From Vulcanimicrobiota bacterium (GTDB lineage: Bacteria; Vulcanimicrobiota; Vulcanimicrobiia; Vulcanimicrobiales; Vulcanimicrobiaceae): a stretch of 64,000 nucleotides of DNA. Each line of letters opens with the position of its first letter. Position 1 is the first letter of the stretch. A program made the translations under genes and the position numbers. The notes under the pieces are model-generated. The model was not told where the DNA came from and did not search any database. It worked only from the letters and a program-made list of their open reading frames with translations. This document shows positions 36,764-50,505 of the stretch, one piece after another. The stretch covers positions 672,001 through 736,000 of the forward strand of contig CAVZQC010000004.1 in assembly GCA_963777315.1 (NCBI GenBank), in the 5' to 3' direction.

Positions 36764-37270
36764 CTAGCGGCGCTCGGCCAGCCGCCGTTCGACGTACGGC
36801 TGCAGCCCGCCGGCTTCGATGAGCGATTGCATGAACGGCGGGAACGCCGCCGCTCGGTACGCCGCGTTTTTCGTAACGTTTCGAATGACGCCGGTTGCGG
36901 GCTCGACTTCGATCTCGTCGCCGCTTTCGATGCCGTCAACCGCGTCGGGTGATTCGAAGATCGGTAGGCCGATATTGAGCGCGTTGCGGTAGAAAATGCG
37001 GGCGAAACTCTTGGCAATGACCGCTGCCGTGCCCGAACCTTTGATCGCAATCGGTGCGACTTCGCGGCTGGAGCCGCAGCCGAAGTTGCGATCCGCGACG
37101 ATGATGTCGCCCGCGCGCATGTTCGCGGTATAGTCCGGATCGATTCCCTCGAGTGCGTGCTTGCCCAACTCGACGGGATCGATAATGTTGCAGTACTTGC
37201 CCGGGATGATGACGTCGGTATCGACGTTCTTTCCGTATTTGTGCGCGCGTCCGCGCAGCGATTTTTCCAT
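36764..37270 (-). CDS. leuD: 3-isopropylmalate dehydratase small subunit (type 2)
   Basis: [32 protein letters not shown]; own ATG overlapping the corrected leuC TGA. Confidence 0.9.
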
Positions 37271-38560
37271 CAGCGGGCCGCAGCCTCGCCGGCGATGACG
37301 CGCGGATCGGTGATGCGCCCCGTGAGCGCCGATGCCGCGCACGTCGCGGGCGAAGCTGAAATACACTTCGGCTTTGGGCGAACCCATGCGGCCGACGTAA
37401 TTGCGGTTGGTCGTCGATATGCACCGCTCGCCGTCGCCCAGCGTGCCCATATGGCCTCCGAAACAGGCTCCGCAGCCCGGCGTATTCACCGCGCATCCCG
37501 CTGCCGCAAGCGTGCCGAGGATGCCTTCCTGCGCTGCCTGCATCCACACTTTTTGCGACCCCGGGTTGACGATCACGCGCAGCGTCGGCGCGATTTTCTT
37601 TCCATCAAGGATCCGTGCGACCACCCGCAGGTCTTCGATGTAGCCGTTGGTGCACGAGCCGATGAAAACCTGATCCACCGGTATCGTTTCGTTGGTGACT
37701 TCGGAGATATCGTGCACGTTGTCGGGCGTGTGCGGGCAGGCGACTTGCGGCTCCAGACTTCCGGCGTCGATTTCCACCACGCGCTCGTACCGCGCATCCT
37801 CGTCGGCTTTTTCCACGAGGAAGTCCCGGTCGGTGCGCTCACGCACGTACGCCAGCGTCTTTGCGTCGGCGTGAAAGATGCCGTTTTTGGCGCCGGCCTC
37901 GATCGCCATGTTCGCCATCGTAATGCGGCCCGTGATCGACAGCTCGTCAACGGTGCTGCCGTGATATTCCATCGCGCGGTACGTTGCGCCGTCGATGCCC
38001 AGCACGGACACGGTCTTGAGCATTAAATCTTTGGCAACGACCATTTCGCCCAGCGTGCCGTCGTACACCAATTTGATCGTGGGCGGCACCTTGAGCCACA
38101 CTTCGCCCAATACGAAGGCGGCCGCAATGTCCGTCGATCCCATGCCGGTGGCAAAAGCGCCGAAGGCTCCGTACGTGCAGGTGTGCGAGTCGCCGCCGAC
38201 GATCAGCTCGCCCGGCGCGACCAGCCCTTCTTCGGGCAGCACGACGTGCTCGATGCCGCCGCGGCCGACGTCGAAAAAGTGCTTGATGTTTTGCTCGCGC
38301 GCAAAATCTTTCATCAATTTTGCGACTTTGGCGGACTGCGCGTCTTTGGCGGGCACGAAATGATCTTCGACCAGCGCGATCTTGTCGGTGTCGAAAACGC
38401 GATCGGCGCCCTTTATCCCGCGCATCACGCCGATTGCGACTGCCGCCGAAAGCTCGTTCGCGAGCACCAAATCGACCTTCGCATTGATGATTGCGCCGGG
38501 CTCGACCGAATCCAGCCCCGCGTGTCGCGCGAGGATCTTTTCGGTCAGCGTCATGCCCAT
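37270..38560 (-). CDS. leuC: 3-isopropylmalate dehydratase large subunit (type 2), +1 frameshift near 37358
   Basis: TLTEKI, DSHTCTYGA, FIGSCTNG, PGCGACFG, STTNRN..GRMG; deleting one base restores VYLASPATCAASALTGRITDPR...*. Confidence 0.9.
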
Positions 38561-38621: not shown

Positions 38622-39899
38622 ATGCCGGACCGCCGATTCGGACTTTCCACGCGCGCCATTCACGCCGGCACGCCGCCGGATCCCGTTACGGGCTCGCGCG
38701 CCATGCCCATCCATCAAACCGCGGCCTTCGTGTTCGGTTCCACCGAGCAGGCGGCCGAACTCTTTGCTCTACGCAGTTACGGACATATTTACAGCCGGAT
38801 CAGCAATCCCACCGTGGCGGCGTTCGAAGAACGCATGGCCAGTCTGGAAGAGGGCCTGGGTGCGATCGCGTTTTCCAGCGGTTTGGCCGCGCAGCTCGCC
38901 GTGGTGCTCACGTTAGCCCAAGCCGGCGATCATATCGTCAGCTCGCAAAGCGTATACGGCGGCACGGTAACGCAGTTCAGCGTGACGCTGCGCCGCATGG
39001 GCATCGACACGGCCTTTGCCGGCGCGCGCGACTACGATGCAATCCGCGCGGCCATTGCGCCCAATACGAAACTGCTGTTTGCCGAAACGATCGGCAACCC
39101 GTCGGGCGAAATCGCCGACGTGCGAGCGCTCGCGCAGATCGCGCACGAGGCCGGCATTCCGCTTATCGTCGACAACACGTTCGCCTCGCCTGCGCTCTAT
39201 AGGCCGATAACGCACGGAGCGGACGTCGTCGTCCATTCGGCGACCAAATTCATTTGCGGACACGGCACCGTCATCGGCGGCGTGGCCATCGAGTCGGGAA
39301 AATTCGACTGGGGCAGCGGCAAGTTTCCATTGCTCTCTGAGCCCAGTCCCGGATACCACGACAAAATCTTCGTTGAAACGTTCGGCGAGTACGCCTTTCT
39401 CATGCGCGCGCGCGCAGAAGTGCTGCGCGACGTCGGCTCCCAACTGTCGCCCATGGATGCGTGGCTCTTGCTGCTCGGACTTGAAACCTTGCCGCTGCGC
39501 ATGAAGGCGCACGTCGAGAACGCGCGCCGGGTCGCGCAATTTTTGCAGGATCGCGCGGAAGTGGAATGGGTCAAGGCGCCGCAGATGGGATCGATCTTCA
39601 CGTTCGGCATTCGGGGTGGGCGCGAGGCGGGGCGGCGCTTCATCGACGCGCTCGAGTTATGGAGCCATCTGGCCAACGTAGGCGATGCAAAGAGCCTGGT
39701 AATACACCCTGCATCGACGACGCATTCACAGCTCGGCGACGAAGAACTGCGCAAAGCCGGCGTCGCTCCCGAAGCGGTACGTTTGTCGGTCGGACTGGAA
39801 GACGTCGACGATTTGCTGTGGGATCTCGATAACGCGCTGCGTGCGGCTGCACGTCAGTCCGAGCCGCGAACGGTTGTGAGGCAGCGGCAAACGGTATGA
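38622..39899 (+). CDS. metY: O-acetylhomoserine aminocarboxypropyltransferase (MetY-like)
   Basis: TRAIHAG, IYSRISNPT, VDNTF, HSATKF..GHG, ANVGDAKSLVIHPASTTH.QL. Confidence 0.9.
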   Translation: MPDRRFGLSTRAIHAGTPPDPVTGSRAMPIHQTAAFVFGSTEQAAELFALRSYGHIYSRISNPTVAAFEERMASLEEGLGAIAFSSGLAAQLAVVLTLAQAGDHIVSSQSVYGGTVTQFSVTLRRMGIDTAFAGARDYDAIRAAIAPNTKLLFAETIGNPSGEIADVRALAQIAHEAGIPLIVDNTFASPALYRPITHGADVVVHSATKFICGHGTVIGGVAIESGKFDWGSGKFPLLSEPSPGYHDKIFVETFGEYAFLMRARAEVLRDVGSQLSPMDAWLLLLGLETLPLRMKAHVENARRVAQFLQDRAEVEWVKAPQMGSIFTFGIRGGREAGRRFIDALELWSHLANVGDAKSLVIHPASTTHSQLGDEELRKAGVAPEAVRLSVGLEDVDDLLWDLDNALRAAARQSEPRTVVRQRQTV

Positions 39900-40372
39900 T
39901 CCTCGACACGATCGCAGCGCGGCGCGATCTCCTGGCCGCGAGCAAGACCGTCGCTATGGTCGGCGCGTCGGCGAATCCGCTGCGTCCCAGCTACACCGTC
40001 TTCAGTTACCTGCGCACCCAAACGCCGCTTTCGGTAACGCCGATCAACCCCACCATCGATCAGATCGACGGTATCAAAGCATATCCGTCGCTCCACGCGT
40101 ATGCTGCCGAATGCGGCGCTCCGGACGTCGTCGACGTTTTTCGCAAACCCAGCGAGGTGCTCGCAGTCGCCCGAGAGGCGGTCGACGCCGGCGCCAAGGC
40201 GATCTGGTTTCAATACGGCGTGGTCAATCAAGAGGCGATCGAACTGGCCGACGGCGCGGGACTCGCCATCGTCGTCGACCGGTGCATCAAGGTCGAATGG
40301 GCGCGTCAGAGCGGCGGTCTTTCGACCGGCGGCCTCAACAGTGGAATCATTACGAGCCGCCGGCGCGCGTGA
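39896..40372 (+). CDS. CoA-binding protein (YccU-like)
   Basis: VAMVGAS.NP.RPS, VDVFR, IWFQ.G, VVDRCIKVE. Confidence 0.92.
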   Translation: MILDTIAARRDLLAASKTVAMVGASANPLRPSYTVFSYLRTQTPLSVTPINPTIDQIDGIKAYPSLHAYAAECGAPDVVDVFRKPSEVLAVAREAVDAGAKAIWFQYGVVNQEAIELADGAGLAIVVDRCIKVEWARQSGGLSTGGLNSGIITSRRRA

Positions 40373-41460
40373 ACGACTCCGGCTATCTGCGCGAAGCGGC
40401 AGCGTTGGATCGGGAGATACTGCGCTGCATCCAGCGGCGCACCGTTCCGGATTTTGACGACCTCGCGCTGCGCGTCTTCGCTCATCAGCTGCGGTACAAC
40501 GTTCCGTACGCGCGGTACTGCGCTGCGCTGGGCGTAACGCTGGAATCGATGCCGGCCGGCTGGGAAGCGATTCCTCCGGCTCCAGCGGACGCGTATAAAG
40601 AGCAGGCGTTATGCACGTTCGATGCGGCGCGCGCCGAGCTGATTTTTCAGACCAGCGGCACGACGGGCGGCACGGGCGGCATGCATTACATGGAGAACGC
40701 CGCACTCTACGACGCGGCGCTGCTGGCCGGATTCGCCGACGCGATGCTGGCAGACCGGGCGGAGCCGCTTACCTATCTGCTGCTGCTTGCAAGTCCGCAG
40801 GAGCGGCCGCGTTCGAGCCTAGGCTATATGATGGCGCGCGTTGCGGACCGGTACGGGGATGGCGGCGAGGGATGGTACGTGCGCGGCGACGTGCTGGACG
40901 TCGATCACTTCATCGCCGATGCGCAGCGCGCGGCAACGTCGGCTGCCGGCGTATGCATCGCGGGTACGGCGTTCGCGTTCGTGCAGCTGCTGGACGCTCT
41001 AGCCGAGCGCGACATTCGCCTGCCGCTGCCCGCGCAATCGCGCATCATGGAGACGGGCGGATTCAAAGGACGCACTCGGGTGGTCGAGCGGGACGAGCTG
41101 TACGCGAATCTGTGCGCCGCGTTCGCTTTGCCTGCCGAACGGATCGTCGCAGAGTACGGCATGACGGAACTGACCAGCCAGTATTACGATCGCATTTCGG
41201 CCACCGGGCGAATCAAAAAAGCGCCGCCGTGGCTGCGCGCGCGTGTGGTCGACGCGTCGGGTGCGACGGTGCCGCCCGGCACGGCCGGCACGCTCGTGCA
41301 TGTCGATCTCGCCAACCGCTCCTCGTGCGTAGCGGTGCAGACGCAGGACGTCGGCGTTGCGGCAGGCGGCGGTTTCGTGCTGATCGGACGCGAACGCAGC
41401 GCGCAGCTGCGCGGGTGTTCGCTCGACGCAGAGCAATTGCGCGCCCTCGAGCGCGCGTGA
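40369..41460 (+). CDS. LuxE-like acyl-protein synthetase
   Basis: FAHQ...N.PY, FQTSGTT, GTAF, METGGFKGR, EYGMTELTSQ.Y, DLAN, TQD.G, C-terminal GR...LRGCS. Confidence 0.85.
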   Translation: MNDSGYLREAAALDREILRCIQRRTVPDFDDLALRVFAHQLRYNVPYARYCAALGVTLESMPAGWEAIPPAPADAYKEQALCTFDAARAELIFQTSGTTGGTGGMHYMENAALYDAALLAGFADAMLADRAEPLTYLLLLASPQERPRSSLGYMMARVADRYGDGGEGWYVRGDVLDVDHFIADAQRAATSAAGVCIAGTAFAFVQLLDALAERDIRLPLPAQSRIMETGGFKGRTRVVERDELYANLCAAFALPAERIVAEYGMTELTSQYYDRISATGRIKKAPPWLRARVVDASGATVPPGTAGTLVHVDLANRSSCVAVQTQDVGVAAGGGFVLIGRERSAQLRGCSLDAEQLRALERA

Positions 41461-42683
41461 CGCATCTGGCGCGCGTTCCGGTGCGCACAATCATTCGGGC
41501 GATTGCAGCCGCAGCCGAACGTTGGAGCGACGCGGATTTTCCCGCACGCGTTCGAATTCTCGATCGCATTTGCGAGCGAACCGGCTATTCGATTCCGGTC
41601 GTCGAGTATGCGCTGGATCGGCTGTTTTTTGCCGTTTCGGAGTCGGCCCTGGAGGCAACTATTTGCAGCGAGCTTGGCTCGCTGCAAACGCTGGACGGGT
41701 TCGCGAAGCGCGCCGGGCGCCCGGCGGCATGGGCGGTCCCAATCGGCCGCGTCTGCATCGTTTCGAGCCGAACGACCATCGGCGTCGCCTTGGTTCCGGC
41801 TTTTTTCGCGTTGTGCGCCAAGTGCGACGTGGTCGTCAAGGATCGCGAGGACGCGCTGATCGCCGCCTTTTTCGACACGCTGAGCGAAGAACTCGACGAG
41901 TTCGCCGGGGCGGCGTGCGCGCGCAGCTGGAGTTCGGCCGAGCCCGGCGCACCTGCGCTGGAATCTTTTGCAGGCGTGGTCGCCTTCGGGCACGACGATA
42001 CGCTGGCGGACATTCGGCGCATGCTGCGGCCCGACGCGCGCTTTATCGGCTACGGCTCGCGCGCGAGCGCCGGGTACGTGACGCGCGAGTCGCTGCAGGC
42101 TGAATCGGACGTTCGCGACATCGCGCGCGGAGCGGCGCGCGACCTTGTGTTGTACGAAAGCCAGGGATGCTTATCGCTTCACGTGCTGTTTCTCGAGCGC
42201 GGCGGCGCAACGAGCCCCCGGCGCTTTTGCGACGCCCTCGCATCCGCCGTCGAGCACACGAACGTAGAATTTCCGGTGGGCGAACGGGATGCGTCCGTCG
42301 CTGCGCGGCTGTCGCAGCAACGCAGCTTGGGCGTCTTTCGCGCCTCCGCCGGCCGGGGCGCCGTCTACGCAAACGCTTCCGCCGATTACCTCGTCCTTTT
42401 CGATCCGCCCGTCGAGCAGACTCCGTTGTTCTTGCCGCGCGCCTTGGGGATCGTGCCGGTCGACGAACCGGATCAGGCGCTGGAATATCTGCAGCGCCAC
42501 CGCCTGCCGCTCGAAGGGTTTGCGCTGTCGGCAGCTCGCGAGGACGTTGTGGCGATGGCACTCCAAGCCGCGGCAGTGCGCTTCACCCGCTTTGGGGAGC
42601 TGCAGGATCCGCCGCTCGGGGCCGATCACGGCGGAAGGCCGCGCATCGCCGAATTCGTACGTTGGGTCGATACGTCGCTTTGA
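41457..42683 (+). CDS. LuxC-like acyl-CoA/acyl-protein reductase
   Basis: VVAFG.D.T, FIGYGSR.S, DLVLYESQGCLS (catalytic Cys), GELQ.P....HGG. Confidence 0.82.
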   Translation: MTHLARVPVRTIIRAIAAAAERWSDADFPARVRILDRICERTGYSIPVVEYALDRLFFAVSESALEATICSELGSLQTLDGFAKRAGRPAAWAVPIGRVCIVSSRTTIGVALVPAFFALCAKCDVVVKDREDALIAAFFDTLSEELDEFAGAACARSWSSAEPGAPALESFAGVVAFGHDDTLADIRRMLRPDARFIGYGSRASAGYVTRESLQAESDVRDIARGAARDLVLYESQGCLSLHVLFLERGGATSPRRFCDALASAVEHTNVEFPVGERDASVAARLSQQRSLGVFRASAGRGAVYANASADYLVLFDPPVEQTPLFLPRALGIVPVDEPDQALEYLQRHRLPLEGFALSAAREDVVAMALQAAAVRFTRFGELQDPPLGADHGGRPRIAEFVRWVDTSL

Positions 42684-43981
42684 ACGAGGACGTGCTGGAG
42701 GAGCTGCGCACGCCGGTGCCCGGACCGCGCACGCGCGATCTGGCCCGAGGGCTGCAAACGTTCGAATCGCGCAACGTCACGTTCGTCGACGAACGCTTTC
42801 CGGTGTTTTGGGAATCTGCCGCCGGCGCCACGGTGCAAGACGTGGACGCAAACCGCTATATCGATCTCACCGCGGCGTTCGGCGTGGCAAACACCGGCCA
42901 CAGCAATCCGCGCGTCGCCGCTGCGCTCGCCGCGCAAGCCGCGGATCTGATGCACTCAATGGGCGACGTGCATCCCACCCACGCCAAAGTGCGGCTGCTC
43001 GACAAGCTCGCCGCGATCGCGCCCGGCGCCCTGTCAAGAACGTTCTTGGCCTCCACGGGAGCCGAAGCCGTAGAAGCGGCCCTCAAGACCGCGATGGTCG
43101 CGACCGGAAAATCGGCCTTTGCCGCCTATCGCGGCGCATATCACGGTCTTTCGCTCGGCGCTCTCCAAGTGTCCGGCATCGACAAATTCCGCGCGCCGTT
43201 CGCCGGATTTTTACAGCACCGCACGCTATTTTTGGACTATCCCGATGCGCAACGCTGCGGGACGTCGCAGGACGTCGATGCGGCGCTCGCCCGGGTAGGC
43301 ACCGCGTTGGACGCTCGCACCGACGTCGCGGCGCTGATCGTGGAACCGGTGCAGGGACGCGCCGGCTGCATCGTTCCGCCCGACGGGTATCTCACCGGAC
43401 TGCGCGAGATCTGCACCGCGCGCGGCGTGCTGCTCATTTTCGACGAGATCTATACCGGATTTGGGCGGACCGGCACGCTCTTTGCGTGCGAGCACGAACG
43501 CGTCGTGCCCGATATCCTGTGCATCGGAAAAGCGATGGCCAACGGTTTTCCGATTTCCGCGACCGTCGCGCTGCCGCAAATCATGGACGCATGGCCGCTA
43601 TCCTCCGGTGAAGCGCTGCATACCTCGACGTATCTAGGTAACCCGATGGGCTGTGCGGCCGCATTGGCAAACATTGCGGAGATCGAACGTTTGGGTTTGG
43701 TCGAGCGCGCCGCCGAGATGGGCGTGCTGCTGGGCGAGCGGCTGCGCGGGCTGCGTTCTCGGCCGAGCGTTCGGAGCGTGCGCGGCCGAGGACTGATGTG
43801 GGGCGTCGAACTGTTCGACGGCGGATACGCTCAAAGCGTCGTCATCGGTGCCTTGAAGAAAGGCATCATACTGCTGCAAGCGGGAGTACGGGGTAACGTG
43901 CTGTCCATAACCCCGCCGCTGGTCATATCGCAGCGGCAGCTCGACCGCGCCATCGACATCGTTGAGGAGTGTTTGACGTGA
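42680..43981 (+). CDS. Class III PLP aminotransferase
   Basis: DVD.NRYID, TGAEAVEAALK, YHG, EPVQG, LIFDEIYTGFGRTG, PDILCIGK. Confidence 0.93.
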   Translation: MNEDVLEELRTPVPGPRTRDLARGLQTFESRNVTFVDERFPVFWESAAGATVQDVDANRYIDLTAAFGVANTGHSNPRVAAALAAQAADLMHSMGDVHPTHAKVRLLDKLAAIAPGALSRTFLASTGAEAVEAALKTAMVATGKSAFAAYRGAYHGLSLGALQVSGIDKFRAPFAGFLQHRTLFLDYPDAQRCGTSQDVDAALARVGTALDARTDVAALIVEPVQGRAGCIVPPDGYLTGLREICTARGVLLIFDEIYTGFGRTGTLFACEHERVVPDILCIGKAMANGFPISATVALPQIMDAWPLSSGEALHTSTYLGNPMGCAAALANIAEIERLGLVERAAEMGVLLGERLRGLRSRPSVRSVRGRGLMWGVELFDGGYAQSVVIGALKKGIILLQAGVRGNVLSITPPLVISQRQLDRAIDIVEECLT

Positions 43982-45018
43982 TCCAGGCGGCACCGCGGTA
44001 CAAAGTCGGCATCGTCGGCGCCGGTTTCGGCGTTCGCGCGCATTTGCCGGCGTTCGCTGCGCATCCGAGCTTCGAAGTGGTCGCGCTGGCTTCGCCGCAT
44101 AACGCACTGCGCATCGCGCAGGAGCGTGGAATACCGCACGCCTTTACCGGTATCTCCGAGCTGCTTGCGGGCTGCGCGGTCGACGTGGTCTCGATCGCTT
44201 CGCCGCCCTTTGCGCACCATGGCGGCGTCCTCGCAGCGCTGCGCGCCCGCAAACACGTGATCTGCGACAAGCCGTTTGCGCTCGACGTGGGCCAGGCGCA
44301 AGAGATGCTCGCAGCCGCCGAACAAGCGGGTACCGCGACGGCCGTCATGCACGAATTTCGCTGGGTGCCGCAGCGCCTGGCCGTCAAAGAGCTGGTGAGC
44401 AACGGTCATGTGGCGCCGCTGCGCCAGCTCGAAATTACGCAGCTCTCGGGACGCCTTCGTCAAAGCGTCGAGCGTTCCGATTCGTGGTGGTTCGATCGCG
44501 CCCGCGGCGGCGGGATGGCGGGCGCGTTGCTGTCGCATCTGATCGATGCGTCGAATTGGATAGCGGGCCGCTCACCGCTGCGCACCACGGGGTACCTGCG
44601 AACGGCAAACCCCGTGCGCCACGACGAAACGGGCGCATTCACCAGCAGCGTCGACGACGGCTGTTTTGCGCTGCTCGATTACGGCGACGGACTAGTCGCG
44701 CGCCTTGCCGTCGACGCAACCTTAGCGGTGGATTCGTTCACCTTGGCGGCACATGGCGAAAACCGTACCGCGGTTGCGAGCGGCACGGACCCGCACGATA
44801 CGCGACTGTTCACCGTCGACGGCGAAGAAACCGCCGAACTGGAGTGCAAGCCGTCGCCGTATCGTCAGCTGCAGGCCATCGATCCGCACGTGCCCCTCAT
44901 CGTGGAGTTGCTCGACGAGTTCGTCAAGCAAATCGAAAGCGGCAGCAGCGCGGTGCCTACGTTCGAGCAGGCAGTTGCAACGCAGCGCGTGCTCGAGTCG
45001 ATCGGGTACGGCGTTTAG
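43978..45018 (+). CDS. Gfo/Idh/MocA-family oxidoreductase
   Basis: VGIVGAGFG, KHVICDKP, GGG.....SHLID. Confidence 0.9.
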   Translation: MIQAAPRYKVGIVGAGFGVRAHLPAFAAHPSFEVVALASPHNALRIAQERGIPHAFTGISELLAGCAVDVVSIASPPFAHHGGVLAALRARKHVICDKPFALDVGQAQEMLAAAEQAGTATAVMHEFRWVPQRLAVKELVSNGHVAPLRQLEITQLSGRLRQSVERSDSWWFDRARGGGMAGALLSHLIDASNWIAGRSPLRTTGYLRTANPVRHDETGAFTSSVDDGCFALLDYGDGLVARLAVDATLAVDSFTLAAHGENRTAVASGTDPHDTRLFTVDGEETAELECKPSPYRQLQAIDPHVPLIVELLDEFVKQIESGSSAVPTFEQAVATQRVLESIGYGV

Positions 45019-49649: not shown

Positions 49650-50505
49650 CTAAAAATCGACCGGCCGCAGGTAGAACTCGTTGATCGCCGTGTTGGTGAG
49701 CATTGCGGTCGTCGGTAAGTGACGCTTCCAGTGCGTTCCGTCCAAACGGCGCCGCACGAGTGTCACGTCGCTGCCTGCGAAACCGCGTTCGACGAGCTGC
49801 GCGTTGGAATAGCCTTCGAGCATGCGCGCTAAGATCGCGTCCGCTTTTACGTAGGCTATTCCCAAGTCCGCTTCGTCGGTTTGATCGGCCTCCAAATCGG
49901 CACTGGGAGCTTTTTCAATCAGTTCGCGCGGAACGCCCAGATGTCGCGCCAGCTCCCAGACCTGCGACTTGTAGAGGTCTCCAATCGGATTGACGGGCGG
50001 CGTGTCGTCGGCGTGCCAAGTGAAATACCCCAGCAGACGTTCGGTCTTGTTTCCGGTGCCGATCGGCAGCGCGCCGTATTTCGCCGACTGATCGAACAGC
50101 ACCAGCATGCGCACACGGGCCATCACGTTGCCGCGCCGCCGCGCGTCGGCGTCGGGCTGGCATTTCAGATAGCCGTCGACCGCGTCGCTGATGTCGATCG
50201 TGTGTTCCACGATGCCCAGCGCGTCGACGACCAGACGCGCGTCGCTCAAACTCGACGCACTCGACGTACGGTACGGCATTCGGATCGCGTGCACGTTGCC
50301 GGGCCCTAGCGCCCGCGCACACAAAAACGCGGTGACCGCCGAATCGACGCCGCCGGAAAGCCCGACGACCGCACAGGCTCGTGTCGCGCCGCACCGTGAG
50401 TTCGTCCTGCAGAAAGGCCACGAGCCATTGCTCGGTGACTTTCGGGTTGATTCCCGGCGCCGCAGTGAACGAGGACCGGTTTTCTTCGATGACCGGCAGC
50501 GTCAT
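49650..50505 (-). CDS. nadE: NAD+ synthetase, synthetase subunit; +1 frameshift near 50375
   Basis: Deleting one base restores AVVGLSGGVDSAV; GNVMARVRM, GTGNKTE, PIGDLYKSQV, KAPSADL...QTDE. Confidence 0.9.

Follow-up and report, generated by a model that had tools for sequence, protein, structure and literature searches.

What do a LuxE-like and a LuxC-like enzyme make in a bacterium in which no luciferase is found? The question is raised by a six-gene operon in the window analysed here, a stretch of 64,000 nt from a bacterium of the Vulcanimicrobiota (Eremiobacterota), class Vulcanimicrobiia, whose own genome assembly is 89.9% complete. The luciferase family PF00296 has no match in this assembly, which bears out the absence of luciferase claimed for the window by an earlier sequence-only reading; none of the six operon genes matches LuxD, for which no genome-wide search was made. 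Three of the genes, coding for the LuxE-like enzyme, the LuxC-like enzyme and a class III pyridoxal 5'-phosphate (PLP) aminotransferase, are predicted to convert 7-carboxy-7-deazaguanine (CDG) to 7-aminomethyl-7-deazaguanine (preQ1) without QueC and QueF, and we give this reading a probability of roughly 0.78. CDG is proposed as the substrate because of the gene context and the presence and absence of queuosine genes, and its change to preQ1, from a carboxylate to an aminomethyl group, is the conversion to be expected of such a trio. The sequence-only reading had proposed a “dark” lux module making a fatty amine or an omega-amine; of this proposal the luciferase-free LuxE-LuxC pair, the conserved aminotransferase and the likely conversion of a carboxylate to a primary amine are retained, while the fatty or omega-amine product found no support. 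The three core genes are:

40369..41460, + strand: LuxE-like acid-activating enzyme (363 aa, GTG start; PF04443, E 7e-15)
41457..42683, + strand: LuxC-like thioester reductase (408 aa; PF05893, E 2e-36)
42680..43981, + strand: class III PLP aminotransferase (433 aa, TTG start; Aminotran_3 PF00202)

The LuxE-like protein scores 51 bits against a cut-off of 550 for the LuxE equivalog NF052244, and the LuxC-like protein 24.8 bits against 750 for the LuxC equivalog NF052251. In profile searches they match 7XC6_E, the LuxE of Photobacterium phosphoreum (E 7e-42), and 7XC6_A (E 1e-39), respectively, whereas the LuxC-like protein searched as a single sequence (phmmer) gave no match in the PDB. Lys233, Arg341 and Cys350 of the LuxE-like protein correspond in the alignment to Lys238, Arg355 and Cys364 of the P. 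phosphoreum enzyme, residues whose roles are described in PMC9157457. Cys350, within an RGCS motif, is shared by all 40 aligned homologues and falls on the GCS cysteine of P. phosphoreum LuxE. The LuxC-like protein has Cys238 within QGCLS, unchanged in 13 of 13 and matched in the alignment to the catalytic cysteine of 7XC6 LuxC. The predicted structure of the LuxE-like protein (mean predicted local distance difference test score, pLDDT, 91.8) has PaaK-type aryl-acid ligases as its top fold matches, and the best structural match of the LuxC-like model is 7xc6_A, with a template-modelling (TM) score of 0.87 at 17% identity. By sequence and predicted models, the window proteins thus combine the LuxE and LuxC folds with their catalytic cysteines. 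Natural fusions of the two enzymes occur in seven of 17 long representatives scanned. Among other arrangements, the LuxE domain of P0321 is fused behind a zinc alcohol dehydrogenase, and in other classes of the phylum (L146-L150) LuxE stands with a protein of about 880 aa that unites LuxC and a PaaK-like ligase, often after an unassigned gene of 400 aa; at one of these loci (L149) a divergent queE lies beside the unit.

In the aminotransferase the PLP lysine, Lys284, is invariant in 73 of 73 relatives; together with the two cysteines above, it had been read from the sequence as intact, correctly so. The protein passes none of the 25 NCBIfam models shown, scoring below each cut-off. Compared with 3oks, an aminotransferase of gamma-aminobutyric acid (GABA), it has YHGLS for YHGRT, EPVQGRAG for EPIQGEGG, DEIYTG for DEVQTG and VLSITPPL for VVRFLPPL, and it therefore falls outside the GABA, ornithine and putrescine aminotransferases both by family cut-off and by substrate motifs. 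The arginine of YHGRT binds a carboxylate in GABA-type enzymes, and its loss speaks against an omega-amino acid as substrate. Of the 73 relatives, 72 retain Arg227, and Asp96, Trp305, Glu311 and His314 vary little or not at all; that Asp96 or Glu311 reads a guanine-like edge is a guess.

Which genes belong to the unit is best seen in the relatives. A luxE gene was present in all 41 class genomes. LuxC was detected with a single query in 81 of 81 genomes of family f1, two of two of f2 and five of ten of f3, the most distant family, and with a profile at seven of seven f3 loci. In 55 of 80 GTDB loci the sequence extends 4.5 kb or more beyond luxE on the downstream side; the order luxC-aminotransferase-gfo was present in 42 of these, and in the other 13 luxE was cut off by an inversion. 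The aminotransferase follows luxC at all seven f3 loci, where the unit consists of luxE, luxC and the aminotransferase only, with metY, the CoA-binding gene and gfo absent throughout, and this reduction defines the three genes as the conserved core. The trio is single-copy and class-wide, which suggests a housekeeping function rather than secondary metabolism. The remaining members of the operon are:

38622..39899, + strand: MetY, O-acetylhomoserine aminocarboxypropyltransferase (425 aa; PF01053; TIGR01326, 556 bits against a cut-off of 495)
39896..40372, + strand: CoA-binding protein (158 aa; CoA_binding_2 PF13380), which we take to be of YccU type
43978..45018, + strand: Gfo/Idh/MocA oxidoreductase (346 aa; GFO_IDH_MocA PF01408), with an in-frame GTG at 43969 as an alternative start

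All six frames are open on translation, and Pfam and NCBIfam matches agree with the families and coordinates first assigned to them. MetY is an ordinary methionine enzyme and an incidental neighbour, as the sequence-only reading had allowed: it scores over the TIGR01326 cut-off, and its gene is absent upstream in eight of the 42 intact GTDB loci and in the f2 and f3 loci. The CoA-binding gene is its companion, moving with metY where the block is inverted and likewise absent in f2 and f3. The gfo gene lies downstream of the aminotransferase in f1, shows a likeness of only 25% in f2 and is absent in f3, and the metagenome loci that carry it (see below) all fall inside the window's own clade of the aminotransferase tree; it is a conserved family neighbour and probably lies outside the route. 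The neighbourhood check proposed with the first reading thus upheld the aminotransferase as a partner and not the oxidoreductase. The part in the amine product once assigned to the Gfo and MetY enzymes finds no support at the f3 loci, and metY, the CoA-binding gene and probably gfo are considered co-transcribed passengers. All five junctions are 4-nt NTGA overlaps, as first described (ATGA at 39896, GTGA at 40369, GTGA at 41457, TTGA at 42680, GTGA at 43978). By rough gene calls, such overlaps join 304 of 1799 same-strand neighbour pairs (17%) in the own genome, including five runs of four; being so frequent, they signal translational coupling and do not prove a single pathway. A scan for promoters and terminators gave no signal above chance, and no viral or phage copies of the genes were found. 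Protein-database searches returned close relatives only, among the matches listed, and the loci nearest to the operon are from Vulcanimicrobiota (Eremiobacterota).

The conserved core bears on the proposal that the module makes a fatty amine or an omega-amine in the fashion of tambjamine tails, perhaps with further modification by the Gfo and MetY enzymes, which we regard as quite improbable. The closest solved relatives are indeed the fatty acid reductase LuxC-LuxE, and in Streptomyces a LuxC-like reductase and a transaminase lead to dodecylamine (bioRxiv 10.1101/2025.08.11.669332). According to the same source, the tambjamine enzymes TabE/TabA and TamA/TamH share the sequence of thioester, aldehyde and transamination, with TabE clustering with LuxC, but work with an acyl carrier protein on C12 chains in secondary metabolism. 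In the window, by contrast, the unit is a single-copy class core, its proteins lie far under the LuxE and LuxC equivalog cut-offs, and no gene for an acyl carrier protein or a thioesterase occurs in the operon gene calls or among the conserved neighbours in 80 loci. Moreover, Gfo and MetY are not conserved partners, and a fatty amine would leave unexplained both the adjacency to queE and the exclusion of QueC, to which we now turn.

The distribution of queuosine genes was investigated in a phylum sample of 150 genomes, 93 of this class and 57 of other classes; the tallies include one to three genomes marked as unpublished, on which the conclusions do not depend. QueE was found in 93 of 93 class genomes compared to 20 of the 57 others, while QueC over cut-off was found in none of the 93 compared to 25 of 57. 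An orthologue of the aminotransferase is present in 91 of the 93 and in none of the 57, so that aminotransferase and QueC are mutually exclusive in the phylum. QueF gave no match in any of the 93 class genomes, nor in the set of 41, and scored over cut-off in ten of the 57 others; neither QueC nor QueF was found in the own genome. Two QueC-like matches below the cut-off lack YxQxHxxE and YPDC, the signatures of true QueC (PMC13329287). Two QueC-fold orphans lacking the canonical motifs are encoded at L298:6455-7456 and L299:7119-7745, one carrying 100 additional aa at its N-terminus and the other located in an island of lower GC content. In family f12 five genomes have QueE and QueC and no QueF match, a further gap in the queuosine route.

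The steps on either side of this gap are present. QueD, QueA, Tgt and QueG were each found in five of five genomes, queD and queE are adjacent in the own genome, and the Tgt of this genome retains Cys158 and Val233, described as marks of the type that inserts preQ1 (PMC3660597). The salvage transporter family YhhQ scored over cut-off in only one of 41 genomes. With QueD and QueE as well as Tgt, QueA and QueG present and QueC and QueF not found, the class seems able to produce CDG and to consume preQ1, but the known enzymes do not connect the two. Separately, the queD-queE pair of the own genome (L196, C1:252790-255205) is directly followed by genes for a futalosine hydrolase and a probable mqnD, of menaquinone synthesis, an order repeated in two other family genomes.

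A link between the aminotransferase and queE was also found outside the class. Five aminotransferases that do not belong to the window's family were aligned and used to scan metagenomes. This gave 577 relatives, and the analysis retained the 80 best loci, 15 in the window's aminotransferase clade and 65 from other lineages. In 25 of the 65, queE lies upstream on the same strand as the aminotransferase, with gaps of -1 to 1624 bases (12 bases or fewer in 12 of the 24 loci with called genes). LuxE/luxC occur in 13 of the 65, and all four genes, queE, aminotransferase, luxE and luxC, meet in two (L228 and L233), where QueE scores over the equivalog cut-off TIGR04349; queC and queF were found in none of the best 80. 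In a LuxE tree of 47 chosen rows, including 17 of 150 representatives, the window protein falls in a clade (support 95/97) with LuxE of the linked loci, apart from the proteins found behind thiamine pyrophosphate (TPP) riboswitches. LuxE from a cluster holding a Verrucomicrobiota record groups with L228 and L233, and related aminotransferase clusters in the Atlas are mostly from Gemmatimonadota and Acidobacteriota.

Several observations weigh against a queuosine role of the trio. The QueE and QueD of the class score below every equivalog cut-off, although QueE and QueD models are their best matches, and queD-queE is remote from the operon, on another contig in the own genome and about 18 kb off in f3. 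The split in presence and absence follows a single class boundary among related genomes, and therefore amounts to one evolutionary event. FolE was found in one of five genomes, even though the own genome does carry folate genes, and no riboswitch of the preQ1 or any other type was found in the window or in the 12 loci scanned. Within the class, an inversion parts luxE from luxC in 18 of the 80 GTDB loci. Among the 65 metagenome loci, 29 have neither queE nor luxE/luxC, the majority of queE links come from a single clade in which rsmA follows the aminotransferase, and 23 of the 25 queE-linked loci have no luxE/luxC alongside, as far as the metagenome contigs extend. With regard to FolE, FolE2 replaces it in many bacteria (PMC5699537); a search by motifs rather than by family, a weak test, did not find FolE2 in the own genome or across 320 kb from four relatives. 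The only FolE of the five genomes, in the own assembly (L191:1489-2514), is fused to a QueD/PTPS domain in an open reading frame of 341 aa.

Some of these points fit another use of the same compounds, in which the trio acts on CDG or a relative to make a different 7-deazapurine amine, or in which the aminotransferase alone serves queuosine synthesis while LuxE and LuxC act on another acid. CDG has further known uses, such as the deazaguanylation of proteins by QatC/Cap9, queE adjoins the aminotransferase alone in those 23 loci, and luxE is separable from luxC in the class. However, the aminotransferase requires an aldehyde, for which LuxE and LuxC are the adjacent source, the four genes do meet in L228 and L233, and Tgt, QueA and QueG need preQ1, the usual source of which was not found. 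We therefore consider both variants unlikely.

On the favoured reading, the conversion of CDG to preQ1 by the trio, LuxE would use ATP to form CDG-AMP and move the acyl group onto Cys350 as a thioester. The acyl group would then pass to Cys238 of LuxC, from which NADPH would free 7-formyl-7-deazaguanine, and the PLP enzyme would transaminate this aldehyde to preQ1, the base that Tgt would insert into tRNA and that QueA and QueG would carry on to queuosine. The nitrile preQ0 would be bypassed. By prediction the trio would consume one ATP, one NADPH and one amino donor, whereas the nitrile route requires two ATP, ammonia and two NADPH. The two ATP steps of the latter are described in PMC5699537, and 7-formyl-7-deazaguanine is a real compound, released by QueF mutants (PMC13740343).

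The trio would share with QueC and QueF (PMC5699537, PMC13740343) its substrate, its product and its place between QueE and Tgt, but the proteins are unrelated, and QueC and QueF work through amide and nitrile intermediates where the trio is predicted to pass through an aldehyde, without preQ0. With LuxC-LuxE of P. phosphoreum (7XC6; PMC9157457) it has in common the two folds, the aligned catalytic residues and, by prediction, the relay from adenylate to thioester and the NADPH reduction to aldehyde; unlike the luminous pair, it has no luciferase, an aminotransferase as partner and a predicted heteroaromatic acid as substrate.

In PMC13740343 and PMC5699537, the only route described for queuosine synthesis runs through QueC and QueF, and in the openly accessible literature, with most subscription papers outside this scope, we found neither LuxE/LuxC nor an aminotransferase tied to preQ1 synthesis. 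Beyond the locus itself, we consider it likely that queuosine is made by a nitrile-free de novo route as standard throughout the Vulcanimicrobiia and in several other lineages, and that luciferase-free LuxE/LuxC are mainly reductases of heterocyclic acids in cofactor and tRNA-base metabolism, with the light-producing enzyme as one offshoot. If true, calls of queuosine auxotrophy would be overturned for lineages with queE and tgt and without queC and queF, and many proteins labelled “acyl-protein synthetase” or “acyl-CoA reductase” would gain a function. It would also provide a carrier-protein-free enzyme set for converting a heteroaromatic acid into an amine; QueF has been reported as too narrow for biocatalysis (PMC13740343). 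A cultured member of the phylum is on record (PMC9758169).

The same chemistry could in principle be directed at glutamate, with the trio replacing ProB/ProA or ArgB/ArgC and forming a semialdehyde that is transaminated to ornithine or cyclised towards proline. ProA over cut-off was found in none of five genomes, and for this reason the possibility is kept, at low odds. ArgC over cut-off was found in only 18 of 41 genomes, none of them in f3, and a gene of the ornithine cyclodeaminase family in 26 of 41. Nevertheless, the trio is kept with or without ArgC, the aminotransferase has YHGLS where the GABA-type enzyme has the arginine of YHGRT, and the linkage to queE would be unexplained, which makes a role in glutamate reduction very improbable.

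Finally, salvage of thiamine fragments was considered, in which a pyrimidine or thiazole acid would be reduced and aminated. Homologues with 31-38% identity lie behind TPP riboswitches together with a short-chain dehydrogenase/reductase (SDR) in Pantoea, Azospirillum, Lactiplantibacillus and Priestia. The LuxE proteins of these loci, however, form a clade of their own (support 98/98) with the window protein outside, no TPP riboswitch was found in the window, and genomes of the class have at most one, ahead of thiC in the five genomes checked. A role of the trio in thiamine salvage is thus regarded as extremely improbable. The nearest plasmid homologues comprise 27 records, of which four were opened; all four show luxE-luxC-(ABC)-SDR behind a TPP riboswitch, three over the gathering score and one just under it:

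L134:8794-12339, L135:8674-14800, L136:8830-14837 and L137:1390-6321: TPP riboswitch-luxE-luxC-SDR plasmid loci, from Pantoea, Azospirillum, Priestia and Lactiplantibacillus, with an importer in three of the four

Like the window pair, this module has no luciferase, belongs to a related LuxE/LuxC branch and is predicted to reduce a heterocyclic acid; it differs in its SDR, and hence alcohol, end, its riboswitch control and its separate clade, whereas the window has an aminotransferase, no TPP riboswitch and no SDR. The plasmid module fits the orphan thiamine gene oarX (OarX: PMC11223231), as a candidate for its carboxylate-activating partner. A word search for “lux” in the text available of that paper gave no hit; its supplementary table, outside the search, may list such genes.

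Divergent genes of leuCD type beside the operon had prompted the idea of lysine synthesis via alpha-aminoadipate, which was rejected in favour of the diaminopimelate route, because 33 of 41 genomes have lysA over cut-off and five of five have dapB, and because the adjacent genes match LeuC and LeuD best. The own assembly has no match for lysA, argC or proA. In the window, leuC and leuD form one open reading frame of 598 aa (36764-38560, - strand), where relatives mostly have two, reflecting either a fusion or an assembly frameshift. A NAD synthetase-like gene (49650-50505, - strand) is broken over two frames, probably by an assembly error, and corresponds to a single open reading frame of 283 aa in relatives.

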